Shown here: one piece after another, positions 1,583 through 41,066 of the stretch
Position numbering within the stretch: position 1 is the first letter of the stretch
How the letters are laid out: each line of letters opens with the position of its first letter
Assembly (NCBI GenBank): GCA_050734135.1
Contig: JBOHUG010000054.1
Coordinates: 8,189-72,188, forward strand
Reading direction: 5' to 3'
Origin: Candidatus Dormibacteria bacterium
Lineage (GTDB): Bacteria > Chloroflexota > Dormibacteria > Aeolococcales > Bog-877
Length of the DNA stretch: 64,000 nt
Made by a program: the position numbers and the translations under genes
The notes under the pieces: generated by a model
Told to the model about the DNA's origin: nothing
Database searches by the model: none
Seen by the model: the letters and a program-made list of their open reading frames with translations, nothing else

Positions 1583-2569
1583 ATGGTAAGGAGATCAAGA
1601 TTGAGTGACGGACCTCCGATCCTCGTCGAGGGGCTGGTGAAGCTCTACGGTTCTACCAGGGCCGTCGACGGACTGAACCTGGTCGTCGAGAAGGGAAGCG
1701 TGGTGGCGGTGCTGGGACCGAACGGGGCAGGCAAGACGACCTTGATTCGCATCCTCGCGACCCTGGCCAAGCCCACTGGGGGACGTGCGGTGGTGGCCGG
1801 CTTCGACGTTGCCGCGCACCCTGCCCAGGTCAGGCGCCACATCGGCATCGCCGGCCAGTCGGCCAGCATTGATGAGTATCTGACCGGGCGCCAGAACCTG
1901 GTCATGGTGGGCGAGCTGAGCCGACTTCCCCGGGGAGTGGCCAAGGCGCGGGCTGGGGAGCTTCTCGATCGCTTCGATCTCGGAGAAGCTGCCGATCGGA
2001 CGACCAAGACCTACTCCGGGGGGATGCGCCGCAAGCTCGACCTCGCCGCCAGCCTGGTCACCCAACCCGAAGTTCTGTTCTTGGACGAGCCCACGACCGG
2101 ACTCGATCCCCGGGCGCGCATGGGAATGTGGCAGCTGATTCGAGAGCTTGGGGAGGCCGGCACCACACTCCTGCTGACCACCCAGTACCTGGACGAGGCG
2201 GATCAACTTGCCCACCACATCGCCGTGGTGGACCTGGGGAAGGTGATCGCTTGGGGGACTCCAGACGAGCTCAAGACCCAGGTGGGCGGCGCCGTCCTTG
2301 AGGTCACCTTGCCGGAGACGGCCGACCCCGAGGCGGCCGGTCGACTGCTGCGGGCGGCGACCTCGCTGGCGGTGACCGTGGACCGGCGTCGGCGCCGACT
2401 CACCCTTCCCGCCGCTACCGAGGGCGGTCTGGTGACCAGGGTGATCCGAGCCCTGGACGCTGGCGGGGTCGAGGTTGACGACGTCACCGTGCGCCGACCG
2501 GCGCTGGATGACGTGTTCATGACCTTGACCGGTCACGGAGCGGAACTGGACCCGGAGGTGGCCGCATGA
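1583..2569 (+). CDS. ABC transporter ATP-binding protein (DrrA-like, ABC-2 exporter ATPase)
   Basis: Walker A GPNGAGKTT, signature YSGGMRRKLDLA, Walker B LFLDEPTTGLD. AAGGAG RBS at 1588. The start could be a downstream TTG. Confidence 0.85.
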   Translation: MVRRSRLSDGPPILVEGLVKLYGSTRAVDGLNLVVEKGSVVAVLGPNGAGKTTLIRILATLAKPTGGRAVVAGFDVAAHPAQVRRHIGIAGQSASIDEYLTGRQNLVMVGELSRLPRGVAKARAGELLDRFDLGEAADRTTKTYSGGMRRKLDLAASLVTQPEVLFLDEPTTGLDPRARMGMWQLIRELGEAGTTLLLTTQYLDEADQLAHHIAVVDLGKVIAWGTPDELKTQVGGAVLEVTLPETADPEAAGRLLRAATSLAVTVDRRRRRLTLPAATEGGLVTRVIRALDAGGVEVDDVTVRRPALDDVFMTLTGHGAELDPEVAA

Positions 2570-3420
2570 GCGTGGCCCAAGTGGCGGAAGCCCATGCCGG
2601 TTCCGGGGAAGTTGGGGCGGGCCGGGTCCTGTGGTTTCTGAAGGACGTCCTGGTACTGACCCGGCGCAGTCTGATCCACGTCGTGCGGGACCCCGCTCAG
2701 CTGGCAGACGTGACCATCCAGCCGATCATGTTCGTGGTTCTATTCACATTTGTCTTCGGCAGCGCGATCAAGCTTCCCGGAGGCGGCAACTACCACGAAT
2801 ACGTGGTGGCGGGTATCTTCGGGATCACCATGGCGGGCGCCGCGCCCGGCGTCGCCGTGGGGCTCGCCACCGACATCCAGTCGGGCATCATCGACCGCTT
2901 CCGGTCCTTGCCGATGTCCCGGGCCGCGGTCCTGGCGGGACGGCTCACGGCAGACCTGCTGACAGCGGTGCTGGGGCTGGTGGTGGTGGTCGCGGTCGGA
3001 CTCGCCGTGGGGTGGCGCGTGCACACCAACCCGGGCGAGGTGCTGCTCGGTTTCGCCTTGGCGCTGCTCTTCAACTACGCCATGAGCTGGGCGGGTGCGG
3101 CGGCGGGAATGTGGTTGCACAACCCTGAATCCGCGCAGGCGATGGCATTTGTGGTCTTCTTCCCCATGATCTTTGTTTCCAACGCGTTTGTGGCACTGCA
3201 GAACATGCCGGTCTGGCTGCGGGTGGTCGCCGAGTGGAATCCGGTGAGCACGGTGACCGCGAGCTGCCGGGAACTGTTCGGGAATCCCAACCCCTCAGCG
3301 TCGGTGCAGGTGTGGCCGCTGCAACATCCCGAGCTGGCGACGGCGCTGTGGGCGCTGGCATTGCTCTTGATTTTCGTACCGCTCTCGATTCGACTCTACC
3401 GGCGCGAGGACCTGACCTGA
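2566..3420 (+). CDS. ABC-2 type transporter permease (DrrB-like)
   Basis: 284 aa hydrophobic protein with six predicted TM segments. ATGA overlap with the upstream ATPase, suggesting translational coupling. Confidence 0.8.
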   Translation: MSVAQVAEAHAGSGEVGAGRVLWFLKDVLVLTRRSLIHVVRDPAQLADVTIQPIMFVVLFTFVFGSAIKLPGGGNYHEYVVAGIFGITMAGAAPGVAVGLATDIQSGIIDRFRSLPMSRAAVLAGRLTADLLTAVLGLVVVVAVGLAVGWRVHTNPGEVLLGFALALLFNYAMSWAGAAAGMWLHNPESAQAMAFVVFFPMIFVSNAFVALQNMPVWLRVVAEWNPVSTVTASCRELFGNPNPSASVQVWPLQHPELATALWALALLLIFVPLSIRLYRREDLT

Positions 3421-3460: not shown

Positions 3461-4198
3461 CTAGCCGACGCTGTCTGCGGTATCGGCGCTGATCGCAGAT
3501 AGGGGCTGTTTCTGAATTCCCTGTGCGTCGAAGTTGGCGGGGTCCAACCAGCTCTCCAGGCGCGCCTTTCGTGCGGGCCAGTCGCCGTCCAGGATGGAGT
3601 ACCAGGCGGTGTCGCGGCTGCGCCCCTTGATCACCATGTGCTGGCGGAAGGTTCCCTCATAGTTGAAGCCCAAGCGCAGTGCGGCGAGGCGCGAGGGCGC
3701 ATTGAGCGCGTCGCATTTCCACTCGTAGCGGCGATAGCCGAGATCTTCAAACACATACCTGGCCAAGAGATACATGGCTTCGGTCGCTCCCCGCGTCCGC
3801 TGCAGGGCGGGTGTGTAGAGGATGTACCCCACCTCCACGCAGCGGTGCGCCGGTTCGATCCGCATCAGCGACGCCCAGCCGAGGGCACGCTTGGTGTCCC
3901 CATCCAGGATGGCGAAGAAGAGGGGATTGTCGGTGCTGCAGGACCGGTGCAGGTGGGCGTCGAAGGCGACCCGGTCGGCAAATGGACCGACGGGAAGGTA
4001 GCGCCAGAGGTGGTCGTTGGCGGGATCGAGGAGGTGCTCCCAGAGCGCCGCGCCATGCTGCGCCTGGTTCAGTGGGGTCAGTTCGATGTAGCGGCCCTCC
4101 AGGGTCACCCTTTGGGGGAAGGGCGCCGGAGTGGGATCGACCCGGGGACCGACCGGCAGTCCGGTTTCGGGATCGGTCTCGGGAGCCGGTGCGGGCAC
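3461..4198 (-). CDS. GNAT family N-acetyltransferase (RimJ/RimL-like)
   Basis: Conserved GNAT core EVGYILYTPALQRTRGATEAMYLLARYVFEDLGYRRYEWKCDALNAPSRLAALRLGF. GTG start at 4198, preceded by GAGGAGG. Confidence 0.75.
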   Translation of the reverse strand: MPAPAPETDPETGLPVGPRVDPTPAPFPQRVTLEGRYIELTPLNQAQHGAALWEHLLDPANDHLWRYLPVGPFADRVAFDAHLHRSCSTDNPLFFAILDGDTKRALGWASLMRIEPAHRCVEVGYILYTPALQRTRGATEAMYLLARYVFEDLGYRRYEWKCDALNAPSRLAALRLGFNYEGTFRQHMVIKGRSRDTAWYSILDGDWPARKARLESWLDPANFDAQGIQKQPLSAISADTADSVG

Positions 4199-4382
4199 CT
4201 TCTCAAAACCTCCTCGGCGCTGGCGTCACCTCGGCTGGCGGGCGGCCAGCGGGCTTGCAGCCAACTCGCTCAAGAGCCCGTGGGGGCCGCGCCGTCCGCG
4301 CGGCGCCACTCCCGAGAGCTTCCCCCTCCCGGAGCGCCAAGTGGGAATCGTAGCAGCGCACACCTGGCTGTGGGAACCCACC

Positions 4383-4994
4383 TCAGGGCTGGAGACGCTC
4401 CCGTCGCCAGCCGGGCGGCTCGAGGACGTATCGGATCCGATCATGGAGCCGGTCTTCCCGGTGCTGCCAAAACTCATAGCCGACCGCCTGGAGCCGATAG
4501 CCGCCCCACCACTCTGGGCGGGGGACCGGGCCCCCTGCCAGAGATCCCTCGAGTTCGCTGACTCGGCGATCGAGCTCTGCCCGGCGGATGATCGGCCGGC
4601 TCTGAGCCGACGCCACGGCACCTAGCTGACTGGCGCGCGGCCGACTCGCAAAGTAATGATCAGAGTTGGCAGAGTCGAGTTGCTGGACTGGGCCCTCGAT
4701 CCGGACCTGGCGTCCCAGCTGCGGCCAGTAAAAGAGAAGGGCCGCCCAGGGATTGGTGGCCAGCTCACCGCCTTTGCGGCTCAGGTAGTTGCTGTAAAAG
4801 TCGAATCCACCAGCTCCCCATCCCTTCACCAAGACCATCCGCTGGGACGGGCGCCCGCTGCCATCGGCGGTGGCCAGTGCCGCGGCCTCGGCCAGGGGCT
4901 GGGCGGAGCTGGCCTCGGCAAACCATCGCTCGAACTGAGCCAGCGGATCGGGAGCGACATCCCGCTGGCCCAGTTTGGGGAACTTCTCCGTCAA
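4383..4994 (-). CDS. pdxH: pyridoxamine 5'-phosphate oxidase
   Basis: PNPOx motifs (RMVLVKGWGAGGFDFYSNYLSRKG, WGGYRLQAVGYEFWQHREDRLHDRIRY). TTG start, with AGGAGG upstream. The alternative TTG start at 5000 is possible. Confidence 0.8.
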   Translation of the reverse strand: MTEKFPKLGQRDVAPDPLAQFERWFAEASSAQPLAEAAALATADGSGRPSQRMVLVKGWGAGGFDFYSNYLSRKGGELATNPWAALLFYWPQLGRQVRIEGPVQQLDSANSDHYFASRPRASQLGAVASAQSRPIIRRAELDRRVSELEGSLAGGPVPRPEWWGGYRLQAVGYEFWQHREDRLHDRIRYVLEPPGWRRERLQP

Positions 4995-5045
4995 CTTCAA
5001 ACCTCCTGCACCGGTCCGGCGAGTCCCAGCGAGATCAGCCCCCGG

Positions 5046-6098
5046 TCAGCTGATGTAGCCCAGGGAGACCAGCAGCTCCGCGTTGAGCAGGGCAGCTCCG
5101 GCCGCACCGCGGATGGCGTTGTGAACTACCAGGGTGAACTTCCAGTCCAGCACGGAGCAGGGGCGGAGTCGGCCGACGCTGACCGCCATCCCCCGGGCCG
5201 CTTCGCGATCCAGTCGCGGTTGGGGACGGTCCACCCCATCCACCACCAGGATCGGGTTGGGCGGGGAGCTCGGCAGCTGCAGGCGCTGGGGTTCGGAGGT
5301 GAAGTCGGCGAGAGCCCGGCGAACCTGGTCGGCATCGGCTTCGGAGCGAAGCCGCACCGAGACCGCCTCGGTGTGCCCATCCAGCACCCCCACCCGGTTG
5401 CATTGGGCGCTGATCACCAGATTGGCCGGAACAAACCTGCCACCCTCCATCCCGCCCAGGATTTTGAGCGACTCACTCTCGATCTTCTCCTCCTCGCCGG
5501 CGACGTAGGGGATTACGTTGTCGAGGATGCTCAGCCCCGGAACCCCAGAGATCCCGGCACCGGAGACAGCCTGCATGGTCACGACGGAGACCGCAGCCAA
5601 TCCGAATGCGTCCTGAAGCGGCTTGAGCGCCAGCGCCAACCCGATCGCCGAGCAATTGGGATTGGTGACCAGGAGTCCCGTCGTGTACCCGCGCCTTGCG
5701 CGCTGATGTTGGAGCATCGCCGCGTGTTCCCAATTCACCTCGGGAATCAGCAGCGGGACATCGTCGTCGAACCGGTGGTTGCGGGCATTGCTGATCACCG
5801 GAAAGCCGGCCTTGGCTAACCTCGCTTCCGCGTCGCCGGCGACCTCGCCATCGAGGGCGGAGAGCACCAGGTCACACTCCAGGTGCTGGGAGAGGGGCCG
5901 AATCGTCAAATGGGAAACCGTTTCCGGGATGGGAGTGGCGAGCCTCCAGGCGACGGCCTTCCCGTAGGGTCGGCCCGCCGACCGCTCCGAGGCGACCACC
6001 TCAGACACCGTGAACCAGGGATGACCCTCCAGCAACTGCACCAGCCGCTGGCCGACCGCTCCCGTCGCCCCCAGCACCGCGACCCGGAAAACTCTCAT
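5046..6098 (-). CDS. asd: aspartate-semialdehyde dehydrogenase
   Basis: N-terminus MRVFRVAVLGATGAVGQ (NAD(P) binding) and catalytic Cys region LVTNPNCSAIGLALALKP. Start at the internal ATG at 6098. The longer ORF extending to 6224 adds a non-homologous extension. Confidence 0.85.
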   Translation of the reverse strand: MRVFRVAVLGATGAVGQRLVQLLEGHPWFTVSEVVASERSAGRPYGKAVAWRLATPIPETVSHLTIRPLSQHLECDLVLSALDGEVAGDAEARLAKAGFPVISNARNHRFDDDVPLLIPEVNWEHAAMLQHQRARRGYTTGLLVTNPNCSAIGLALALKPLQDAFGLAAVSVVTMQAVSGAGISGVPGLSILDNVIPYVAGEEEKIESESLKILGGMEGGRFVPANLVISAQCNRVGVLDGHTEAVSVRLRSEADADQVRRALADFTSEPQRLQLPSSPPNPILVVDGVDRPQPRLDREAARGMAVSVGRLRPCSVLDWKFTLVVHNAIRGAAGAALLNAELLVSLGYIS

Positions 6099-28959: not shown

Positions 28960-29094
28960 CTTTGACCCGGGCGCCCGCTGGCGCGCCCCTAATCTGCGAC
29001 CGCCTTCGAGTGGAGGGAAGTGGCGGAGATGCGATATCTCACCGACCCGGTAACTGATTCGATATTGGACCGCTGACGGCGTGCGTCAGTCGCG

Positions 29095-29784
29095 GTGGTG
29101 ACCATGGCAGGCAGCGGTTTGCCCCAGCTGAGGCCGCTGGATCGGGACAGCACCTCAAGCCGCATCGCGGCCCGGATACGGTCCGCCATTATCAAAGGTG
29201 CACTACCCCCGGGAACTCAGCTGGCGGAGGTGTCGCTAACCCAACGGCTGGGCGTGAGTCGCGGCCCTGTTCGCGAAGCCCTCCAACGGCTCATCCAGGA
29301 AGGCCTGGTGGTGAGTGGCCGCAACCGGGGGGCCTTCGTCGCCGAGCTCGGCTTGAGGCAAATTCAGGATCTGTACCTAACCCGCGCGCTGATCGAGTCG
29401 GCGGTGGCGGAGAAACTCGCCCAGCAAAATGACGTGCGGTCGCTGGAGCCGCTGGAGGAGTCCCTGGCGCGGATTCGACGTGCTAAGTCGAGCGGGATCC
29501 GCGAGCGCGTCACCGAGGCCGACCTGCGATTCCATACAGTTCTGGTCGCCTCCGTGGGGAGCGATCGGCTGAGCCGCGCGTTTGCCACCCTGAGTGCCGA
29601 AACCAGGATCTGTTTGCGGCAGTTGGCTACGGTGTATCCGGAGGGACGAGACGCAGTGGGCGAGCATCGGGCGATCCTCGACGCGATCAAGTCGGGCGAT
29701 TCACTTCGCGCCAGCTTTCTGGTGCGAGAGCACATGGAGGACTCTGTCCAACAGTTGAGCCAGGCCCTATACCCGGCTAACTGA
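29095..29784 (+). CDS. GntR family transcriptional regulator (FadR/FCD subfamily)
   Basis: wHTH QLAEVSLTQRLGVSRGPVREALQRLIQEGLV followed by a C-terminal FCD domain. Confidence 0.8.
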   Translation: MVTMAGSGLPQLRPLDRDSTSSRIAARIRSAIIKGALPPGTQLAEVSLTQRLGVSRGPVREALQRLIQEGLVVSGRNRGAFVAELGLRQIQDLYLTRALIESAVAEKLAQQNDVRSLEPLEESLARIRRAKSSGIRERVTEADLRFHTVLVASVGSDRLSRAFATLSAETRICLRQLATVYPEGRDAVGEHRAILDAIKSGDSLRASFLVREHMEDSVQQLSQALYPAN

Positions 29785-29894
29785 GTTGACAAGTCGCCAC
29801 TCACCGCTGCCGATCGGAACGCTTTCGTGGGGCCCTTGGCCGGCTCAGGACTCGAAGCGCTGGCAGAGCCGGACCCGAGCCGCGTTGGCCAGCC

Positions 29895-30518
29895 TCAGCG
29901 GAACAATCCGTCGCTGGTCGTGACTGGCCGCCACGGCGGCCGGGTTGCCTCAAAGGCAGCGATGGATTTCTCCTGGCTGAGCGCCATGGCGATGGTATCC
30001 CTGCCGCTCAGCAGGCAGTCCCTCCAGAACGGATCGATGACGAAATCGGCCACTAGGCCTCCGCGATCGCGGACCTGCTGCTGCTGCAGGTCGAGCGCCA
30101 ATCGGTAGTCGCCCGGGGCAGCCCGCGCCCGCAGCTGGGTCACCACGGCGGCGCTGAGCTGCACCGGGAGGAGTCCGTTTTGCAGTGCGTTGGCGGTGAA
30201 GATGTCGGCGAAGGAGGGGGCGATGACCGCCCGAAAGCCCATCCCCAGGAGTGCCCACACGGCATGTTCCCGGGAGGAACCGCAGCCGAAGTTGCGCCCC
30301 GTGATGAGGACGCTGGCGTTGGCATAGGCAGGATTGTTGAGCTCGAATTCGGGGCGAGGCTTTCCTTCTTCGTCATAGCGCCAGGCAAAAAATCCGGCTG
30401 CGCCGTAGTCTCCCCGGTCGGTGCGCTTCAGGAACTGTTTGGGAATGATTTGATCCGTGTCGACGTCATCCCGACTGAGCACCGCTGCGAGCCCCTCGTG
30501 CACGGTGAAGGCCACCAT
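29895..30518 (-). CDS. leuD: 3-isopropylmalate dehydratase small subunit
   Basis: VDTDQIIPKQFLKR and GRNFGCGSSREHA motifs. Confidence 0.85.
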   Translation of the reverse strand: MVAFTVHEGLAAVLSRDDVDTDQIIPKQFLKRTDRGDYGAAGFFAWRYDEEGKPRPEFELNNPAYANASVLITGRNFGCGSSREHAVWALLGMGFRAVIAPSFADIFTANALQNGLLPVQLSAAVVTQLRARAAPGDYRLALDLQQQQVRDRGGLVADFVIDPFWRDCLLSGRDTIAMALSQEKSIAAFEATRPPWRPVTTSDGLFR

Positions 30519-30524
30519 TCCGGT

Positions 30525-32000
30525 CTACCCGGCTCCGACCAGTACGGCGGGCTGCAGATCTCGGACGTCGACAAAGTGACCGTGGAGCGCGGCCGCGGCC
30601 GCCATCGACGGGCTCACCAGATGAGTGCGCCCTCCGGCTCCTTGGCGCCCTTCGAAGTTGCGATTTGAGGTGGAGGCGCAGCGCTCGCCGGCGGCCAGCA
30701 CGTCCGGATTCATCCCGAGGCACATCGAGCAGCCTGCCTCCCGCCACTCGAAGCCAGCGGCCGTGAATATCTGGTCGAGTCCCTCGGCCTCGGCGGCCCG
30801 CTTCACCGTCTGGGACCCTGGAACCACCATGGCTCGCACCCGAGGATGGACCTTCCCCCCGGCTGCGATTGCGGCCGCCGCCCGGAGATCCTCGAGACGG
30901 CCGTTGGTGCACGACCCGATGAAGACACGGTCGATGGCGATCTCCTCAATCGCCGTCCCCTCGGTGAGCCCCATATAGGCCAGGGCCCGCTCGGCCTGCT
31001 GCCGGTCGAATTCCGTGGCGAAGTCGCTCAGACGTGGGATGCGCCCGGTGACCTGAGCCACCATCCCGGGGTTGGTACCCCAGGTCACGTGGGGAACCAA
31101 GCCGGCGGCATCGACCACGACGGTGCGGTCGAACTTAGCCCGCGGGTCGGTTGCGAACTCCAACCACGCCTGGGCGGCGCGGTCGAATTCTTCACCGCGT
31201 GGGGAGGCCGCCCGCCCTGCCAGGTAGCGCACCGTCGTCTCATCCGCGGAGACCAGTCCGGCCCGGGCGCCCGCTTCGATGGTCAGATTGCAGAGCGTCA
31301 GCCGGCCCTCCATCGACAAAGCTCGGACCACGCTCCCCCGGTACTCGACCACCGATCCTTGGGCGCCTGCAATACCCACCTGGCCGATGATGGCCAGTGC
31401 CATGTCCTTGGCGGTTACACCGAGCGGGAGTTCGCCATCAACTCGGATCTCCAGGGTCTCGGCCCGAGCTTGCCAGAGGCACTCGGTCGCCAGCACTTGC
31501 TCGACTTCGGAAGTCCCGATTCCGAAGGCCAGCGCTCCAAACGCCCCCAATGTGGAGGTGTGGGAGTCGCCGCAGACGACAGTCATCCCCGGCTGGATCA
31601 GGCCCAGTTCCGGACCGATCACGTGAACGATCCCCTGGCGCCGGTGATGCATGTCGAGGAGGGGTATCCCGGCCGCGGCCGCGTTCTCGGCCAGCTGGCG
31701 GAGCTGCTCTGCGGCGATCGGATCGGGAGTGGGCCGGCTGCGCTCCCAGGTTGGCACCGTGTGGTCCATCACCGCCAGGGTCAGATCGGGACGCCGGACC
31801 AGGCGTCCGGCTGCCCGCAAGCCGGCGAACGCCTGGGCCGAGGTCACCTCATGGACGAGGTGGAGGTCAACGTAGAGCAGGGCCCGCGAGTCGGGGTCGC
31901 CACTCACCAGATGGGCGTCCCAGATCTTGCGATAGGCAGTCCTCCCATCTGCCTCGCCGCGGTTGTGATCAGTAGGCTTCGGTCGCAACTCGCCTGTCAT
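30525..32000 (-). CDS. leuC: 3-isopropylmalate dehydratase large subunit
   Basis: Aconitase-family motifs with three cluster cysteines ([28 protein letters not shown]). Start at internal ATG MTGELRP, ahead of KIWDAH. Confidence 0.85.
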
Positions 32001-32028
32001 CGCTCCGACCCGCCAAACCACTGCATGG

Positions 32029-33660
32029 TCACGCGGTCGAGGAGAGGCCGCTTCGGGTCTCGGCATGCCGCGCCGCCCATTCGTAGCTGTCAATCAGCGC
32101 CAGGGCCGACGCCTGGAGGATGTTCGGGGAGCACCCCACCGTGGTCCACACCTGCTCACCGTCGCTGGAGTCGATACCCACTCGCACCGTCGCCCCAGTG
32201 CCCTGGTCACCGTCGATGACCCGGACCCGGTAGTCGAGCAGCTTGACTGTGGCCAGAGTGGGGAAGTGGGGAGCCAGAGCGCGTCGGAGGGCTATGTCAA
32301 GCGCCTCCACAGGTCCGGCGGCCTCGGCGGCGGTGTGCACCAGCGCGCCACCCACCAGGACCTTAACACTGGCATGAACGTTTCCAGAGGGCTCAGCCGG
32401 CCTGGGCGTCGAGGTCTCGTGGGCGACCACCAGTGATTCCTGGAGCGCGAAGGGTGCGGAATCGCCGGGGGTTCCCCGGGTGACCAGAAGTTCGAAGGAG
32501 GCGTCAGCGTCCTCAAAGGCCCAGCCTGCGTTCTCGAGCTGCTTCAGTCGCGCCACGATCGATCGAAGCGCGTCCTGATCGAGCCCGGTGATGCCGAGTT
32601 CCTTCAGCTTGCCGGCGACGTTACTTCGCCCGCTCTGGTCCGAGACCACGGTCCGCGCCTCGTTCCCCACCTCAGTTGGGTCGATGTGCTGGTAGGCGTG
32701 CTGGTCCCGCGTCATCGCCTGGGCATGAAGTCCGCCCTTGTGCAGGAAAGCAGCGGCCCCAAGGTACGGCCGGTGGGGGTCTGGGGCCCGATTGACCAGG
32801 GCGTCGAACAGCCGGGACACCTCGGCCAGCTCCCGCAGGCGCTCCCGGTCGAGCACCGGCCGACCCATCTTGAGACGAAGGTTGGCCGCGATCACCAGCA
32901 AGTCGGCGTTGCCGCAGCGCTCGCCGCTTCCGTTGATGGTGCCCTGAACCATGGTGGCGCCGGACTCCACCGCGGCGAGGGAGTTGGCCACCGCGACCCC
33001 CGCATCGTTGTGACAGTGGATGCCGAGGGGAACGTCGACCTGCTGCCGCACTGCCTCCGTGGCCCGACCCACTGCCGAGGGGAGCCGGCCGCCGTTGGTA
33101 TCGCAGAGCACCACCCACCGGGCTCCGGCCCGAGCGGCGGTCTCGATCACCGCCAGGGCGTAGCCCCGGTCCTGCTCCAGTCCGTCGAAGAAATGCTCGG
33201 CGTCGAAGATCACCTCCCTACCCTGGGCGACGGCATAGATGACAGTGTTTCCCACCATCCTCAGGTTCTCCTGGGGGCTCGTGCCCAACACCGTCTCCAC
33301 CTGCCAGCGCGAGGACTTACCGACCACCGTCACCACCCCAGCCCCGGAGCCGAGGGTCAGCGCCAGCCCAGAGTCCGCTTCGGCCTCGACCCCGGGATGG
33401 CAGGTCGAGCCGAAGGCGGCCAGCCGGGCGCGAGATAGGGGCGACTGGGCCAGTCGCTCGAAGACCGCTGTGTCCCGGGGACTCGCCCCCGGCCAGCCGG
33501 CCTCGACATAGTCGACCCCCAGCTCATCGAGGCGGCGCGCGATGCGGACTTTCTGCTCGACGCTGAGCTGGAGCCCGAAACCCTGCATCCCGTCACGCAG
33601 GGTGGTGTCGTAGAGCAGGACCTTTTCCACCCCCGGCTGAACCCATGCCCGCCGGCTCAT
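32029..33660 (-). CDS. cimA: (R)-citramalate synthase / 2-isopropylmalate synthase family protein with C-terminal LeuA-type regulatory domain (CimA-like, LeuA_rel)
   Basis: [10 protein letters not shown] and GWPGASPRD (CimA/TIGR00977-like) motifs. HxH motif [12 protein letters not shown]. About 160 aa C-terminal regulatory domain. ATG at 33660 overlaps the leuB stop (ATGA). Confidence 0.7.
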
Positions 33661-34742
33661 GCTTTGGCTCCCACCGCCAACCGCCCGATCACCGCCTCGG
33701 TGACCGAATCGGTGGACTCGTGGCCACCGAGATCCGGGGTGAGTCGACCCTCGGCAATCACCGCCTCGACCGCCCGCTCCACCACCCCGGCCAGCTGGTC
33801 CAGCTGGAGGGTGAGCCGGAGCAGAAGGGCGATGGTGAGAATGGCGCCAATCGGATTGGCGATCCCCCGCCCGGCCAGGTCGGGTGCCGAGCCATGCACC
33901 GGCTCGTACAGCCAAGGGCCCTCTCCGCCGCCACTGGCGGAGGGCAGCACGCCGAGAGAGCCGCTGAGGGCAGCCGCCTCATCGGTGAGGATGTCGCCGA
34001 AGAGGTTCTCGGTGACCACCACATCGAACTCCCCGGGGCGCTGCAGCAGGCGGAGGGCAAAGCTGTCCACCAGAAAGTGCTCGAGGGCCACGTCGGGGAA
34101 CTTCCCGCCCACCTCGGTGATCACCTCGCGCCAGAGCTGGGATGTTGCCAGCACGTTGGCCTTGTCGACCGAGGTGACCTTCGAGCGGCGCCCCCGGGCG
34201 GCCTGGAAAGCCACCTCGGCCGTGCGCCGAACTTCGGCTTCGCCGTACTCGCTGGTGTCCACCGCGTGACGGTGGGGCGAGTTGCCGGAGATCCCTTTGG
34301 GCTTGCCGAAGTAGATCCCCCCGGTGAGCTCGCGGATGAAAAGGATATCGACGCCCCGAAGCAGCTCGCCTCGAAGCGGGCTGTGGCTCACCAGTCCGGG
34401 CCAGCTCCGGACCGGGCGGAGGTTGGCGAAGGCGCCCACGCCCGACCTCAGCCGGAGCAAACCCGCCTCCGGCCTGACCGGCGCTCGATCCCACTCCGGT
34501 CCGCCGACCGCGCCGAGCAGCACTGCGTCGGCCCCGCGGGCTGATTGCAGGCTCGGCGCTGGCAGCGGGTTCCCAGTCTCTTCTAAGGCGACGCCCCCGA
34601 TCTGCTGCTCGGTAGTTACCAGCTCGACTCCGGCCGCTGGCAGAGCCGCTGTCAAGACGTTCAGCGCCGCCCGGGTCACCTCGGGTCCAATCCCGTCACC
34701 GGCCAGCACCGTTAGGTGCAGGGTTTTCGCTGGTTCGATCAC
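33657..34742 (-). CDS. leuB: 3-isopropylmalate dehydrogenase
   Basis: Isocitrate/isopropylmalate dehydrogenase motif NLFGDILTDEAAALSGSLGVLPSAS. GTG start at 34742 overlapping the upstream stop (GTGA). Confidence 0.85.
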   Translation of the reverse strand: MIEPAKTLHLTVLAGDGIGPEVTRAALNVLTAALPAAGVELVTTEQQIGGVALEETGNPLPAPSLQSARGADAVLLGAVGGPEWDRAPVRPEAGLLRLRSGVGAFANLRPVRSWPGLVSHSPLRGELLRGVDILFIRELTGGIYFGKPKGISGNSPHRHAVDTSEYGEAEVRRTAEVAFQAARGRRSKVTSVDKANVLATSQLWREVITEVGGKFPDVALEHFLVDSFALRLLQRPGEFDVVVTENLFGDILTDEAAALSGSLGVLPSASGGGEGPWLYEPVHGSAPDLAGRGIANPIGAILTIALLLRLTLQLDQLAGVVERAVEAVIAEGRLTPDLGGHESTDSVTEAVIGRLAVGAKA

Positions 34743-35976
34743 CCGGCGGCTGACCCCGCAGCTGCCTCGGCGACCGACACCTCGCCGACTATCTGAGCGA
34801 GGGCGTCGTCCTCCACCTCCTTGGCGGTGTCGGCGACCTCGAGAAAGCGCGTCCAAACCGCTTGGAACGAGTCGGGGGAGAGCTCCAGCCCGATGCGGTC
34901 CAGGCGGTGCCGCAAGGCATGTCGCCCAGAGCGGGCGGTCAGGACAATTTTGGACGCCCCGGCGCCGACGTCCTCAGCGGCGATGATCTCGTAGGTGCGG
35001 CGGTCGCGGAGGACCCCGTGCTGGTGGACGCCGGAGGCGTGGGCAAAGGCGTTAGCGCCCACCACCGGCTTGTTGGGAGGCACCATCATGCCGGTCAGCT
35101 CCGCGACCAGACGGCTGGTCGGCACCAGCTCCTGGGCGCATACGTTGTCGGCCAGCCCCAGCACCGGCCGGCGCACCCGCAGTGCCATCAGGATCTCCTC
35201 GATCGAGGCGTTGCCGGCCCGCTCGCCGATCCCGTTGATGCAGCCCTCCACTCGGCGGGCCCCGGCGTCTATCCCGGCCAGCGAGTTGGCGGTCGCCAGC
35301 CCGAGGTCGTCATGGCAGTGGACGCTGACCAGGACCTGCTCCATCCCCCGCACTTCTTGGCGCACGGTGGCGACCAGGTGATGGAACTCCTTGGGAAGGC
35401 AGTAACCGGTGGTGTCAGGCAGGTTGATCACATTGGCTCCGGCGTCGACCGCCGCCTGAACCACGGTGCAGAGATAGTCGAGGTCGGCCCGGCCAGCGTC
35501 CTCAGGGGAGAACTGGACGTTCTCGCAGAGAGTCCTGGCGTAAGCGATCGCCTGGGCCGTCTGGCTCAGGACGGCGGCCCGGTCGAGGCCTAGCTTGTAG
35601 TTGATGTGGATGTCGGACACGCTCATGAACACGTGGATCAGGTGCCGGGGCGCGTCGCAGACAGCTTGGTGGACTGAGTCGATGTCGCTCCGCTTGGTCC
35701 GGGCCAGCCCCGTCACCGCCGGGCCCTCGACCTCCCGGGCGATCTGCTGCACCGCCGCGAAATCTCCCGGAGAGGAGGCTGGGAAGCCGGCCTCGATGAC
35801 ATCGACCCGGAGCCGACGCAGCTGGTGCGCGATCAAGAGCTTGTCAGCCGGGTGGAGGGTGGCTCCTGGGCACTGCTCACCGTCCCGCAGCGTGGTGTCG
35901 AAGAACTCCACGATCTCCGGCTCAGGCTCTGCCCCGGAATCCCTGTCGAACCGGGCTACTGAGCCCTCCTGTGAAC

Positions 35977-35980
<4 letters not shown>
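34739..35980 (-). CDS. leuA: 2-isopropylmalate synthase / homocitrate synthase family protein, short form lacking C-terminal regulatory domain
   Basis: DTTLRDGEQ and [16 protein letters not shown] motifs. Only 413 aa, so it has the catalytic TIM barrel and subdomains without the LeuA dimer/allosteric domain. Confidence 0.75.
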
Positions 35981-37040
<1,060 letters not shown>

Positions 37041-37044
<4 letters not shown>

Positions 37045-37643
37045 CTCGGTTGGCCACCTCCAGCGCCGGGTGGGGATGTGGTGCCAGACCCAACGGCGGG
37101 TGCCAGGGCCATGGCGAGCGGTCCGCTGCAGATCCAGTTCGAACTCGGCTCTCGGCGCAGATCGGCCAGCACCTTGTCGACCCGCGCCGGCGGACCTGAG
37201 ACGGCGATGATCGTTCGCGTCCCGCACTCCTGAACCAGCTGGCCAGCCACCCCACCGGGCAAGCTGGCGAGGGCTAGCTCCACCTGGTCGGTATGGAGCT
37301 CGACCAGGGCTGTGCTCCACTCCACTGTGGCCGGTTGGGTGATGTCCTCGACGCTGACCACGTCGATCAGCTTGGTCAGCTGTTTGATGATCTGGTCGTG
37401 AGCCTGGGTGCCGGCGTCGATGCGCAGGCTGATCGCCACCACTCCCGGCTCGGCGCTGGGGCCTACGGCGCAGGCCTCGATGCCGAAGCCGCGCCGGCCG
37501 AGCAGGTTGGTGACTCGCTGCAGCACCCCGCGCCGGTCCTCGACCCTAACCGAGATCAATCGAATCCGGGACGCGGGCCGAGTGGTGGTGAGTCCGTCCG
37601 TGCCGGGGGCCAGACGGGGGGCGGGGATGGCGGCCACCGTCAT
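37041..37643 (-). CDS. ilvN: acetolactate synthase small (regulatory) subunit
   Basis: ACT domain [37 protein letters not shown] at 37643 overlaps the ilvB stop (ATGA). The upstream part of the 420-aa ORF is non-homologous. Confidence 0.8.
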
Positions 37644-39379
37644 CGATTCTCCGGGCACTCGACGAAGTCGGAGAGTCCTTTGCCGAGCGGCACGATCGGG
37701 TAGACGTTGGCGTCGGGGTCGATCTCGAAGTCGATCACGGCGGGACCTGGATGGGCGAAGGCGGCGTCCAGCACCGCCTCCATCTCGCTCGCCTCCCGGA
37801 CCACCGCTCCGAAGCAGCCGAAGGCCCGGGCCAGCATCGCGAAGTCGGGAGTGAGCAGATGGTCGACCTGGGAGCGCACCCCGCCATAGAAGTCGTCCTG
37901 GAACTGGCGCACCATCCCCAGCTGCCGGTTGTTGAGCACTGCCGCCTTCACCGGCAGCCGGGCCTCGACTGCGGTTGCCAGCTCCTGCAGGGTCATCACG
38001 AAGCCGCCCTCGCCACTGACGCTGAGCACCCGGCGGTCCGGGAATGCGGCCTGGGCGCCGATGGCGGCCGGGAGAGCGAAGCCCATTGTCCCCTGTCCGC
38101 CGGAGTTGAGGAAGTGGCCGGGCCGGTCTCCGCTCCAGGCCACAGCCGCCCAGATCTGGTTCAGCCCGACGTCGGCGACGGTGATGTCGTCCGGACCGAG
38201 CCTGGCGTAGCAGGCGGTGAGTACCTCCTGCGGTTGGAGTCGCCCGTTGACGGGGTGGCGCAGGGGATGCTGGGTGCGCCAGGACTCCACCTGGGCGAGC
38301 CACCCCGGCCGAGGCCGCGATGGCACCTGGCTCGCCAGTTCTCTCAAGGCAGCTTGGGCGTCGCCGACGATCTGGCAGTCCGCCTTCACCGTCTTACCGA
38401 GCTCTGCGGGATCGATGTTGATGTGGATGAGGTGGTTCGCACGCGGGGCGAACTCGTCCAGACGGCAGGTGACCCGGTCGTCGGCCCGCATCCCCACCAT
38501 CAGCAACACGTCGCAGTTGCTGACCGCCAGGTTGCAGTAGCCGGTGCCCATGAAACCGACCAGCCCCAGTGCCAGAGGATGGGTGCTGGGAAAGATCCCG
38601 GTCCCCAGCAGCGTGGTGCCCACCGGCGCATCGCAGGACTCGGCCAGCGCCCGCAGGGCGGATTGGCCACCGGAGATGGCAACTCCACGGCCCGCCAGGA
38701 TCATGGGGCGCTCGGCGCCCGCCAGGAACTCCGCTGCCTGAAGCAGCTGGAAGCTGTCCGGGCGGCCCGGCGCCCGGTGGGGTCGCGGCCGCTGGATCGG
38801 ATCCGCCACCCACTCGACCCGTTGCTGCTGGACGTCGCGGGGAACGTCGATCAGAACCGCCCCCGGCCGGCCGGTGCGGGCAATGTGGAATGCCTCTGCG
38901 ACGACCCCGGGAATGTCGGCGGCGTCCAGGATCTGGTAGCTGTGCTTGGTCACGGACAGGCTGGAGCCGATCACGTCCGACTCCTGGAAGGCATCGGTGC
39001 CGATGGTCGCCGCCGGCACCTGGCCGGTGATCGCCACCACCGGAACCGAGTCGAAGTGGGCGGTGGCGAGTCCGGTGATCAGGTTGAGGGCGCCCGGCCC
39101 CGAAGTTGCCACGCAGACTCCGACCTTGCCGCTGGCCCGGGCATAGCCGTCGGCCATGTGAGCTGCGCCCTGCTCGTGACGGACCAGGACATGCCGCAGC
39201 GGAAAGGCGGGCAGGTGCTGGTAGATCGGCAGGTTGGCGCCGCCGGGAATTCCGAAGACCGTATCCACCCCCTCCCGCACTAGCGCAGCCAGCAGCAGCT
39301 CCGCGCCGGTTGTTCCGGGGGAGACGCCGGCGGCCACGCGGGGCTGGGCGGTCCGTTCGACTGTGGCGGTGACGGTCAC
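37640..39379 (-). CDS. ilvB: acetolactate synthase large subunit
   Basis: ThDP enzyme with three-domain architecture. Motifs include GIPGGANLPIY and GGQGTMGFALPAAIGAQAAFPDRRVLSVSGEGGF. GTG start. Confidence 0.85.
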   Translation of the reverse strand: MTVTATVERTAQPRVAAGVSPGTTGAELLLAALVREGVDTVFGIPGGANLPIYQHLPAFPLRHVLVRHEQGAAHMADGYARASGKVGVCVATSGPGALNLITGLATAHFDSVPVVAITGQVPAATIGTDAFQESDVIGSSLSVTKHSYQILDAADIPGVVAEAFHIARTGRPGAVLIDVPRDVQQQRVEWVADPIQRPRPHRAPGRPDSFQLLQAAEFLAGAERPMILAGRGVAISGGQSALRALAESCDAPVGTTLLGTGIFPSTHPLALGLVGFMGTGYCNLAVSNCDVLLMVGMRADDRVTCRLDEFAPRANHLIHINIDPAELGKTVKADCQIVGDAQAALRELASQVPSRPRPGWLAQVESWRTQHPLRHPVNGRLQPQEVLTACYARLGPDDITVADVGLNQIWAAVAWSGDRPGHFLNSGGQGTMGFALPAAIGAQAAFPDRRVLSVSGEGGFVMTLQELATAVEARLPVKAAVLNNRQLGMVRQFQDDFYGGVRSQVDHLLTPDFAMLARAFGCFGAVVREASEMEAVLDAAFAHPGPAVIDFEIDPDANVYPIVPLGKGLSDFVECPENR

Positions 39380-39392
39380 GGGCTCAGTTCCC

Positions 39393-39584
39393 TCAGTCCG
39401 ACCCGTAGGCGTCGCCGATGGCGGCCGTCACTGCGGCATCGGCAGCCAGGCGGCGCAGCGGTCGCCGGGGGTCCGCGGCACTCTGACGGCTTACCCAGTT
39501 GCGGCCGGCCTCGTCCAGGTCGATGTCGTCCGGATACTGGTCGGAGCCGGAAAAGCTGTCGGAGCCTGATGCTTCGGTGGTCAC
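39393..39584 (-). CDS. small acidic hypothetical protein (63 aa) immediately upstream of ilvB
   Basis: GTG start 7 nt after a consensus AAGGAG SD. Encodes VTTEASGSDSFSGSDQYPDDIDLDEAGRNW... The stop is 13 nt before the ilvB GTG. It lies between the attenuator-like terminator and ilvB. No recognisable family. Confidence 0.35.
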   Translation of the reverse strand: MTTEASGSDSFSGSDQYPDDIDLDEAGRNWVSRQSAADPRRPLRRLAADAAVTAAIGDAYGSD

Positions 39585-39650
39585 GGGGTTTCTCCTTGGC
39601 GGGTGGTCGGGTGGACTCATTCGTGGGCGGTTTCGGATCGGCGCCGGGCA

Positions 39651-39686
39651 TAAAAAAACCGGCCCCCGGGGTATCCGGGGGGCCGG
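39651..39686 (-). terminator. Rho-independent terminator hairpin (candidate attenuator) in ilvB leader
   Basis: Minus-strand sequence CCGGCCCCCCGG-ATAC-CCCGGGGGCCGG followed by TTTTTTT. No upstream minus-strand gene needs terminating. It sits between the divergent promoter region and ilvB. Confidence 0.5.
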
Positions 39687-39710
39687 TGATCTCGCCAGGT
39701 CGCGCAGACG

Positions 39711-39752
39711 CTAGCTGATCAGCCCTCCGGTAATTAGGCGTACTAGGACCAC
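39711..39752 (-). promoter_or_regulatory. candidate ilv-leu attenuator leader peptide ORF (13 codons, Val/Leu/Ile-rich)
   Basis: GTG GTC CTA GTA CGC CTA ATT ACC GGA GGG CTG ATC AGC TAG encodes VVLVRLITGGLIS. 8 of 13 residues are branched-chain. It ends 24 nt upstream of the terminator hairpin. The SD is weak. Confidence 0.3.
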
Positions 39753-40040
39753 GAGGTCCCGGGTGATCAACTGCACGTGCTGGACTTTCGGCAAAGTGGG
39801 GTCATTATCCGGGGCGACCCGAGGAGTGTCAAGTCACGGAACGGTCGCAGGTTCGCCCGCCGCCACTCCAGAATCCGTGTAGCCGGGGAGTTTCAGCGCG
39901 GCGGGGCGGGCTGGACCACCGCGCTGATCGGCCGTCCCGGCGCTTCCCGAACCCGATCGGGAGGCTCAACTCGTGGCGCGGCCACGCAAAATCTTCTTGC
40001 TAGCATCGAGTGGTCAGGCGACCTCTGGGAGGAATCGACC

Positions 40041-41066
40041 ATGATGAAATTGCGCACCATTTCGATCGCCGCGGCGGCCGCTGGGGCCGCCGGTTTGTTC
40101 ATCTTCGGAATAGCGCCGGCCCTGGCCCAGGCTGGTACCAGACCGCTGTCAATCGAAGCGGGTCAGGTCCGGGCAGTGAACGGCTCCACCAGCGTCAGCA
40201 GCTGCGGGAGTCCGGGCCAAAGCACCACGGTGACCCTGCTCTTGCGCAATGGCAGCAGCAGGACCCTGGTACTCGCCAACTCCACCTCTCTGATCGGTCT
40301 TGGGACCGGTTCGGCGGCTCAAGCTAACCTCTGTGTTGGGGATTGGGTGACCGCGTCCGGTACCCGCTCAGGTCACGTCTTGCCGATGCCGGTCACCAAA
40401 CTCCGATTCAGTCCTCCGGTTGCCTTCGGGTCGGTCGATTCAGTCAACGGCTCGGCAGCTGCCGGCAGCTGCGGCAGCTCTGGAACCTCCGGGACTTTCA
40501 CCGTCCAGGGCTGGGTCGATTCGGCGCCCCGGTGGACCGTGACGGTCGGCTCGGCCACGCTCTTTTGTCAGCGCGACCTTGCCACCGCCGCCTTCGCCAA
40601 CCTCTGTGTCGGTGACTGGGCGGCCGCCTCAGGGACCGTCACCGGGGCCGGCACCCTGATTGCCCGCAGGGTGGGGATCACCACGCCGCGGGTGGTTGGT
40701 GATGTCCGCTCCGTAAACGGCGTGAGTGGGGCTGGTACGTGTGGCAGTGCCTCCTCCGCCGGGAGCTTCACTATCACCGGGGAGTACGGCACCAGCTGGA
40801 GCGTGGCGGTGACCCCGGCCACGATCTTTACCGATGGCGGATCTGGTCCGGCCTCGGTTTCCGGCGTCTGCGCCGGTGACGCGGTGGCTGCGTTTGGCAC
40901 CGCTTCGGGCACCAGGCTCGCCGCGACCGCGGTTGCGATCAGCGCCCCGTTCAACGGACCGCTGGCGCCCCCCAGTTCTGCACCTCCGGCTACCAAGGCA
41001 GAGCCGCTTCCCGATCAGCCCCAGCCGATCCTCGCCGGCGGCGGGCCAGTGCGAGTGGGTTACTGA
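40041..41066 (+). CDS. secreted protein with three tandem ~85-aa Cys-containing repeats and Pro-rich C-terminus
   Basis: Signal peptide MMKLRTISIAAAAAGAAGLFIFGIAPALAQA. Three repeats of the pattern VNGS..CGS.G.S.T.T...[W]..V.V.....L......AAFANLCVGDW..ASGT. GGGAGG RBS 8 nt upstream. The ORF-track start at 39777 is too far upstream. Confidence 0.65.
   Translation: MMKLRTISIAAAAAGAAGLFIFGIAPALAQAGTRPLSIEAGQVRAVNGSTSVSSCGSPGQSTTVTLLLRNGSSRTLVLANSTSLIGLGTGSAAQANLCVGDWVTASGTRSGHVLPMPVTKLRFSPPVAFGSVDSVNGSAAAGSCGSSGTSGTFTVQGWVDSAPRWTVTVGSATLFCQRDLATAAFANLCVGDWAAASGTVTGAGTLIARRVGITTPRVVGDVRSVNGVSGAGTCGSASSAGSFTITGEYGTSWSVAVTPATIFTDGGSGPASVSGVCAGDAVAAFGTASGTRLAATAVAISAPFNGPLAPPSSAPPATKAEPLPDQPQPILAGGGPVRVGY

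Follow-up and report, generated by a model that had tools for sequence, protein, structure and literature searches.

Why should an intrinsic terminator stand ahead of a biosynthetic operon, on a strand with no preceding gene to terminate? The question is raised by a 64-kb stretch of DNA (66% G+C; hereafter the window, meaning that whole stretch) from a Candidatus Dormibacteria bacterium of the uncultured soil phylum Candidatus Dormibacterota, in which a hairpin followed by a run of seven T (T7) lies on the minus strand upstream of the branched-chain amino acid (BCAA) gene ilvB. A preliminary description of this region had read it as a ribosome-stalling attenuator with a 13-codon leader peptide, noting that no same-strand gene upstream needs a terminator; we confirmed this, the neighbouring gene being divergent and on the plus strand. 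Our analysis supports the attenuator as the reading of the sequence, with the description of both the open reading frame (ORF) and the hairpin corrected. The leader is probably a ribosome-mediated (leader-peptide) transcription attenuator that would read the charging of tRNA-Leu, tRNA-Val and tRNA-Ile and govern a 63-amino-acid ORF together with ilvBNC-leuA-leuB-cimA-leuCD. An Ile/Leu/Val-rich ORF, a terminator before the first structural gene, an antiterminator that shares a strand with this terminator and an anti-antiterminator are all present, and these predicted parts fit the classical four-segment attenuation scheme. The features of the leader are the following:

39804-39832, minus strand: promoter with -35 box TTGACA (39832-39827), 17-nt spacer and -10 box GATAAT (39809-39804)
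39711-39794, minus strand: candidate leader ORF of 27 codons plus stop, from TTG 39794 to TAG 39713-39711, reading (M)PKVQHVQLITRDLVVLVRLITGGLIS
39732-39755, minus strand: candidate control codons CTC GTG GTC CTA GTA CGC CTA ATT (L V V L V R L I), seven of the eight for Leu, Val or Ile
39714-39771, minus strand: predicted anti-antiterminator (RNAalifold on the alignment A2 described below), helix A (39771-39762 with 39724-39714) enclosing helix B (39760-39755 with 39750-39745)
39675-39730, minus strand: predicted antiterminator (folding and covariation), CCGG-A-GGGCUGAUC... (39730-39707) pairing with ...GAUC-ACC-GGCCC-C-CCGG (39701-39675)
39652-39687, minus strand: intrinsic terminator (folding), stem 39687-39675 with 39670-39658, loop AUAC, T7 at 39658-39652

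Promoter, terminator and leader reading frame

The evidence comes from the window and from two groups of related leaders. IlvB of the window is 82-89% identical to that of three metagenome-assembled genomes (MAGs; one labelled Candidatus Dormiibacterota, two with discordant labels) and 57-74% identical to that of about 20 further MAGs, mostly labelled Dormibacterota or 'Chloroflexi'. Loci L001-L007 carry an alignable leader upstream of ilvB. A 20-base core pattern, CTAGTANNCCTAATTNCNGGAGGG, which is unique in the window and for which no occurrence is expected by chance, retrieved 20 metagenome loci; ilvB lies downstream in 17 of these, two contigs end too early, and one locus (L098) has no ilvB downstream. 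After removal of duplicates, 18 distinct close leaders make up alignment A2. Together with 15 distant Dormibacterota loci (IlvB 57-60% identical), the leaders of which cannot be aligned with that of the window but share its layout, they form a set of 33 distinct loci.

The element begins with a strong promoter that matches 11 of 12 consensus positions, a score for which 0.1 site is expected in shuffled sequence. It is the only promoter-like site in 29000-40100, and both TTGAC and the -10 box are kept in 18 of the 18 close homologues. Judging from the spacing, transcription is predicted to start near A39797, about 7 nt past GATAAT, upstream of a leader of ~145 nt that ends at the hairpin and T7; the 154-nt leader folds at -70.4 kcal/mol (z = -4.4). 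The terminator consists of CCGGCCCCCCGG (39686-39675), ATAC, CCCGGGGGCCGG (39670-39659) and T7 (39658-39652). It had been called perfect: the hairpin, the ATAC loop and the T7 are where they had been placed, but the arms carry one C-C mismatch, and the minimum-energy fold comprises 10 base pairs, a 1x1 internal loop and 2 further base pairs (-26.6 kcal/mol, z = -3.3 against shuffles). This hairpin is the only minus-strand terminator-like site in 29000-40100, its T7 is the sole run of at least seven T on either strand of the 64 kb, and the terminator is kept upstream of ilvB in Dormibacterota loci.

Could such a hairpin and T-run simply have fallen beside a short ORF by chance? Open frames of ~27 codons are common at 66% G+C, and we estimate from base composition that such a frame has a ~50% chance of being open from a given start. 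A coincidence is nonetheless hardly credible in view of the uniqueness of the T7, the fold z-scores of -3.3 to -4.4 and the conservation and covariation of the element across the 33 loci.

The reading frame of the leader peptide had to be revised. The 13-codon frame of the preliminary description does run from GTG 39752-39750 to TAG 39713-39711 and reads VVLVRLITGGLIS, with Val, Leu or Ile at eight of its 13 codons, but it is only the tail of a 27-codon ORF. Its GTG, replaced by GTA, CGG, ATG, GAG, TTC, ATC, CAG, CCG or CTG in 17 of the 18 homologous leaders, was dropped as a start for lack of conservation, as were GTG 39776 and TTG 39770. TTG 39794, by comparison, is invariant and in frame in all 18 close leaders, with variable columns on both sides; no other in-frame start is conserved among them, and the 27-codon frame is open without indels in every one. 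Translation of the ORF would begin at TTG 39794, and the gap of 24 nt that had been described between its stop and the terminator holds. The TTG sits 9 nt past the -10 box, which leaves no room for a Shine-Dalgarno sequence. Across the 33 leaders the start codon lies 9-10 nt past a -10-like hexamer in 27 cases (range 7-12), a spacing that would imply a 5' untranslated region (UTR) of roughly 0-4 nt and hence leaderless-type initiation.

The codons of this ORF are biased in both the amino acids and the synonyms they specify. Ile, Leu and Val account for 13 of the 26 leader codons, against a background of 23.5% (p = 0.003). Over a representative 23 of the 33 leaders, these three residues take up 39% of 593 codons, whereas their share in the operon's proteins is 23.5%. 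The core CTA GTA nnC CTA ATT (39746-39732) is invariant in 17 of the 18 close leaders, and the remaining one (L005) has CTC GTA CTC CTT ATT. Among 2509 codons of the operon, Leu is encoded by CTA in 1.6% of cases, Val by GTA in 2.6% and Ile by ATT in 12%; for Leu and Val the control codons are thus the rarest synonyms, and for Ile a minor one. The presence of in-frame Leu, Val and Ile codons in orthologues had been set beforehand as a refutation test of the attenuator; besides the core in the close leaders, the distant leaders differ in their nucleotides and are still rich in Leu, Val and Ile.

Alternative RNA structures and their conservation

Attenuation of this kind would depend on an antiterminator that competes with the terminator, and whether one could be drawn had likewise been fixed in advance as a refutation test. 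Such a pairing can be drawn in the window and in 18 of 18 close leaders, and an equivalent exists in 15 of 15 distant ones; both tests thus favour the attenuator. In the window, the predicted antiterminator (-31.4 kcal/mol, z = -3.9) takes in the last six sense codons and the stop of the leader ORF on one side and the entire 5' arm of the terminator on the other. Trimmed to the stretch between the stalled-ribosome edge and the terminator 3' arm, the RNA of all 18 close leaders forms one long hairpin of -22 to -35 kcal/mol. The first control codons lie 14-17 nt upstream of the antiterminator arm and the last two (CUA, AUU) 2-5 nt from it, and the TAG at 39713-39711 is inside the 5' arm, the geometry of the ribosome footprint being assumed here.

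The same 5' arm takes part in a second structure. Helices A and B, which correspond to columns 29-38/76-86 and 40-45/50-55 of alignment A2, would sequester the antiterminator 5' arm as long as the ORF is free of ribosomes. Pairing in helix B reaches 94%, three of its six pairs show compensatory changes, and the RNAalifold consensus contains eight pairs with changes on both sides; in the antiterminator, too, eight pairs change on both sides. For the terminated state, 79% of alignment cells are paired and the covariation is 0.179 (shuffled mean 0.139, best slid control 0.081), and for the antiterminator 86% are paired with a covariation of 0.185 (shuffled mean 0.136, best slid control 0.099); in either case none of 500 shuffles reached the observed value, although related sequences can beat every shuffle even without a structure. 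Column 81 (A39719) covaries with column 34 (T39766) in helix A (U-A 13, C-G 5) and also with column 111 (T39689) in the antiterminator (A-U 12, G-C 4). A strand that switches back and forth between two partners should show such double covariation. A long 5' helix (39795-39789 with 39697-39691) that appeared in the single-sequence fold was set aside, as it is only 72% paired across homologues and absent from the RNAalifold consensus.

The distant leaders repeat the arrangement in other nucleotides. In each, an ORF of 21-31 codons that is rich in Ile, Leu and Val opens with ATG or GTG and closes with a stop codon, and a GC hairpin whose tail is U-rich stands immediately ahead of ilvB; the ORFs, such as MATSARTLVLLLGLLGLIGFGRTGARAN, again use GTA, CTT and ATT. 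In 15 of 15, 8-12 nt of the terminator 5' arm find their complement within the final 10-15 codons of the ORF, giving antiterminator hairpins of -25 to -46 kcal/mol compared with -19 to -34 kcal/mol for the terminators. Beyond the phylum, a crude scan of 53 ilvB loci for an Ile/Leu/Val-rich upstream ORF (uORF) followed by a T-run gave only six weak and unsystematic candidates, and we claim no wider family.

These data also bear on whether the ORF might instead be the gene of a small hydrophobic (membrane) peptide that is functional in itself, transcribed from its own promoter up to its own terminator, with ilvB expressed by read-through or from another promoter and no amino acid sensed. The peptides do resemble a single transmembrane helix, especially in the distant clades (for example MDKSSRVFVGLLLGLLGLIGLGQSGARAT), and in L098 the leader precedes small ORFs rather than ilvB. 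Against this, the close and distant groups have little peptide sequence in common apart from the Ile/Leu/Val run, the rarest synonymous codons have been selected, and at 33 of 33 loci the ORF ends in sequence that can pair with the terminator arm, a property for which an ordinary peptide gene has no use. A simple scan also found no other promoter-like site before ilvB, and the element precedes ilvB in every Dormibacterota genome locus examined. A membrane peptide gene is therefore a highly unlikely explanation.

More serious is the alternative that the attenuator is real but is switched by a small-molecule riboswitch, by uncharged tRNA in the manner of a T-box or by an RNA-binding protein, with the ORF incidental. 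The stretch 39746-39723 is invariant within the close clade even at synonymous sites, as would be the case for a binding site at the RNA level, and the start codon (TTG, without a Shine-Dalgarno sequence) is weak. Moreover, two related loci outside the clade carry a T-box-like GGGUGGUACCGCGGG and a terminator before ilvB, namely L022 (~1290-1345; labelled Dormiibacterota) and L029 (~2740-2800; labelled Limnocylindrales), in a position equivalent to that of the leader. L022 has, in addition, a sub-threshold Rfam T-box match elsewhere in the locus (989-1103, 40.5 bits, E = 7e-6), and in L029 an unrelated small ORF lies between the terminator and ilvB. A precedent reported from Streptomyces coelicolor (PMC1262725), to which we return below, also speaks for a switch of this type.

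In the window's own leader, however, neither a T-box sequence nor a specifier stem was found. We scanned Rfam 15 with the window and 12 related loci at the gathering score, with 39300-40100 at E up to 10 and with four loci at E up to 0.1. Nothing in these scans matched the leader: no family reached the gathering score in the window or the 12 loci, 39300-40100 gave matches at chance level only (E at least 1.8), and no family, T-box, ppGpp/ykkC and ilvB-OMG included, was recognised there with E allowed up to 10. The sub-threshold T-box of L022 was the sole hit. The bulge of the antiterminator is ACC and not the UGGN needed for the NCCA end of a tRNA. In addition, the 15 distant leaders, whose nucleotides are unrelated, keep a fixed start, an Ile/Leu/Val frame (GTA, CTT, ATT), a stop before the terminator and the pairing of ORF end with terminator arm. 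The persistence of this layout despite unrelated nucleotides suggests selection on a reading frame rather than on a ligand pocket, and we consider a switch that bypasses the ribosome quite unlikely.

Proposed course of attenuation and comparison with known leaders

How might a ribosome operate these structures? On the leader-peptide reading, transcription would start ~7 nt past GATAAT and a ribosome would initiate on the nearly leaderless TTG 39794. With BCAAs plentiful, it would reach the TAG at 39713-39711 and cover the antiterminator 5' arm (39730-39707), so that the terminator (39687-39652) could form and the polymerase would stop; with no ribosome on the ORF, helices A and B would hold the same arm, and the terminator would again form. 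Should charged tRNA for CUA, GUA or AUU (39746-39732) be scarce, the ribosome would stall, leaving helices A and B melted and the RNA from 39730 onward free. The freed strand would pair with 39701-39675 once this is transcribed and before the terminator 3' arm is made, which would consume the 5' arm and allow read-through. The promoter, the ORF, its rare codons and the three competing structures, all conserved, are what the sequences show; translation from the TTG, the ribosome footprint geometry, the kinetic competition of the structures and the response to BCAAs are as we infer them.

Several observations weigh against this scheme. At equilibrium, all truncations made to mimic a stall keep the upper antiterminator helix together with the terminator (~-42 versus -31 kcal/mol). 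We rejected a purely thermodynamic switch, as stalled-ribosome truncations never displaced the terminator at equilibrium, except partly in L004; since the terminator wins at equilibrium, read-through must be kinetic, as in trp, and it is the co-transcriptional intermediate on which the antiterminator should be judged. Second, UUG is the one in-frame start that the window clade conserves; it lacks a Shine-Dalgarno sequence and is predicted to follow a 5' UTR of ~3 nt, and robust leaderless initiation in mycobacteria has been shown for 5'-terminal AUG or GUG (bioRxiv 10.1101/834739). Third, when the candidate control codons of a look-alike ilvB leader in S. coelicolor were mutated, regulation was reportedly unaffected, so that this leader did not act as a classical attenuator (PMC1262725). 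Finally, a ribosome at the second CUA or at AUU would, from the geometry, cover part of the antiterminator arm, which makes sensing of Ile less certain than that of Leu and Val.

The closest parallels in design are the enterobacterial leu, ilvGMEDA and ilvBN attenuators, which are of the classical trp type. These share with the Dormibacterota leader a short ORF rich in codons for the products of the pathway itself, three mutually exclusive hairpins (1:2, 2:3 and 3:4), an intrinsic terminator before the first gene, rare control codons and, on the assumed footprint geometry, a stop codon where an unstalled ribosome would mask region 2; the leu leader of Escherichia coli and Salmonella has four rare CUA codons. 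In contrast to them, the Dormibacterota leader has an ORF with no Shine-Dalgarno sequence and a start 9-10 nt past the -10 box, and there is no similarity in sequence or covariance model. The control codons come after its region 1 (39771-39762, the 5' arm of helix A) and do not overlap it, and one leader in which Leu, Val and Ile codons are combined would govern a fused ilv-leu-cimA operon.

The nearest precedent is the ilvBNC attenuator of Corynebacterium glutamicum (ilvB-II motif), in which a Val/Ile/Leu-rich leader peptide likewise stands before ilvBNC and is followed by a terminator. That peptide is reportedly made without a ribosome-binding site, going by the title of Morbach 2000 as cited in PMC4046766, and the ilvB-II motif opens with the start codon, the length of its uORF being a multiple of three (PMC10272879). 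The C. glutamicum element differs in belonging to Actinomycetota, in the length of its peptide (15-17 amino acids versus 27 here) and in its start codon (AUG or GUG versus UUG). There is no detectable sequence relation between the two, and the operon studied here adds leu genes, cimA and the 63-amino-acid ORF.

Attenuators with an ilvB uORF have been proposed in several phyla, including the ilvB-OMG and Leptospira ilvB motifs (PMC10272879), and actinobacterial ilvB leader peptides have been proposed as attenuators (Seliverstov et al. 2005; PMC1262725). Like the present leader, these are conserved elements before ilvB with in-frame uORFs rich in BCAA codons. In the mycobacterial leaderless polycysteine short ORFs (the Cys 'ribulon'), too, a leaderless sensory short ORF is the first cistron of a biosynthetic operon. 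Those ORFs have a 5' AUG or GUG and act at the level of translation, where they expose the Shine-Dalgarno sequence of the downstream gene, with no intrinsic terminator (bioRxiv 10.1101/834739), whereas the output here is a canonical hairpin and U-run terminator. T-box leaders also place a terminator/antiterminator switch that responds to tRNA charging before amino-acid genes, but in the Dormibacterota leader sensing would go through the ribosome and not through direct binding of tRNA.

The leader would thus extend classical leader-peptide attenuation to Candidatus Dormibacterota, as a switch of an ordinary type described for the first time in this lineage; our literature search found no paper pairing Dormibacterota with attenuators. 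General understanding of attenuation would be unchanged. The 33-locus set with its covariation is sufficient for an RNA family to be built, which would aid the annotation of Dormibacterota MAGs, and the leader would mark the ilv-leu-cimA cluster as one unit under BCAA control. Of wider interest are the start codon fixed 9-10 nt past the -10 box (leaderless-type, and here UUG) and the choice of sensor codons, which for Leu and Val are strictly the rarest synonyms and for Ile a minor one.

The operon, the 63-amino-acid protein and neighbouring genes

What would the attenuator control? Matches to Pfam and NCBIfam bear out the previously described gene order, ilvB-ilvN-ilvC-leuA-leuB-cimA-leuC-leuD. 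With the 63-amino-acid ORF ahead of them, the genes lie as follows:

39393-39597, minus strand: 63-amino-acid ORF, first gene past the terminator, from GTG 39584 to TGA 39393, with a strong Shine-Dalgarno sequence, AAGGAGA, at 39597-39591
29895-39379, minus strand: structural genes that the attenuator would control, comprising the eight below
39379-37640, minus strand: ilvB
about 37643-37041, minus strand: ilvN
about 37020-35977, minus strand: ilvC
35980-34739, minus strand: leuA, short
34856-33657, minus strand: leuB (ORF)
33915-32029, minus strand: cimA (ORF)
32093-30525, minus strand: leuC (ORF)
30518-29895, minus strand: leuD

These genes overlap or are tightly packed, and a simple scan of 29000-40100 gave no promoter-like and no minus-strand terminator-like site inside the operon; ilvB to leuD probably form a single transcription unit. 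The leuA product has 413 amino acids and matches positions 5-385 of the 516-position isopropylmalate synthase (IPMS) model. LeuA (34739-35980, minus strand) is without the C-terminal allosteric LeuA_dimer domain, which the cimA paralogue (32029-33915, minus strand) retains. A LeuA lacking the domain for leucine feedback would give more weight to the transcriptional control exerted by the attenuator.

The 63-amino-acid protein is 100% identical to a hypothetical protein of 'Candidatus Dormibacteria bacterium' and has 31 homologues, none with a functional name; all those with a source name are labelled Dormibacteria or Dormibacterota. Its N-terminus is variable and its C-terminal part conserved (PEDIxLDEAGRNWVxRQSAADPxRPLRxLAADAAVTAAIGQAYGxD). 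No relative was found in Pfam, NCBIfam or the PDB, and the homologues have no precomputed Pfam domain. The AlphaFold model predicts a two-helix hairpin (mean predicted local distance difference test score, pLDDT, 73), a shape too simple for fold comparison to be informative. Going by its homologues, the ORF encodes a Dormibacteria-specific protein.

In L098 (5343-5987, minus strand), the leader is followed by a small ORF of the CxxC...CxxC type and by the 63-amino-acid ORF, without ilvB, and the next gene is a convergent pyridoxal phosphate (PLP)-dependent enzyme (3997-5274, plus strand). This leader is either a second attenuator copy that controls only small ORFs or part of a rearranged region. 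The extra ORF, a feature of this subclade, encodes 64 amino acids and resembles a zinc ribbon in its two CxxC pairs. Both in L098 (5531-5725, minus strand) and in L003 (~2500-2700, plus strand) it separates the terminator from the 63-amino-acid ORF, and it accounts for the 516-nt spacer of L003.

The 63-amino-acid ORF stays with the attenuator even where ilvB is missing, as in L098, and its product might itself be an unrecognised BCAA-responsive factor. We put forward, as a doubtful though not far-fetched extension, a joint reading in which phylum-wide sensory ORFs that are leaderless or have a leader of at most 3 nt (with non-canonical initiation at UUG in the window clade) drive the terminator-based attenuator and the 63-amino-acid protein is a BCAA-responsive factor and not a passenger. 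If so, transcription and translation would begin at essentially the same nucleotide, and the lead ribosome could couple to the polymerase from the promoter onward. Of the whole system, only the predicted leaderless start at UUG and the 63-amino-acid protein, presumably co-regulated, might prove to be unusual.

No tRNA genes were found in the 64-kb window. The divergent neighbour upstream of the leader (40041-41066, plus strand) starts with ATG 40041, preceded by the Shine-Dalgarno sequence GGGAGGAA, and encodes a product with repeats, a hydrophobic, signal-peptide-like N-terminus and a DUF5666 domain; a simple scan of the 246-nt intergenic region found no consensus promoter for it. In the distant Dormibacterota leaders of L008-L025, a shared and partly palindromic box, TTTGTG-N8-9-CAC(A/T)A, lies over the -35 position, about -57 to -37 from the leader start codon (for example 1139-1157 in L013). 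The window clade has the consensus TTGACA instead of this box, which in L008-L025 may be a transcription-factor operator.

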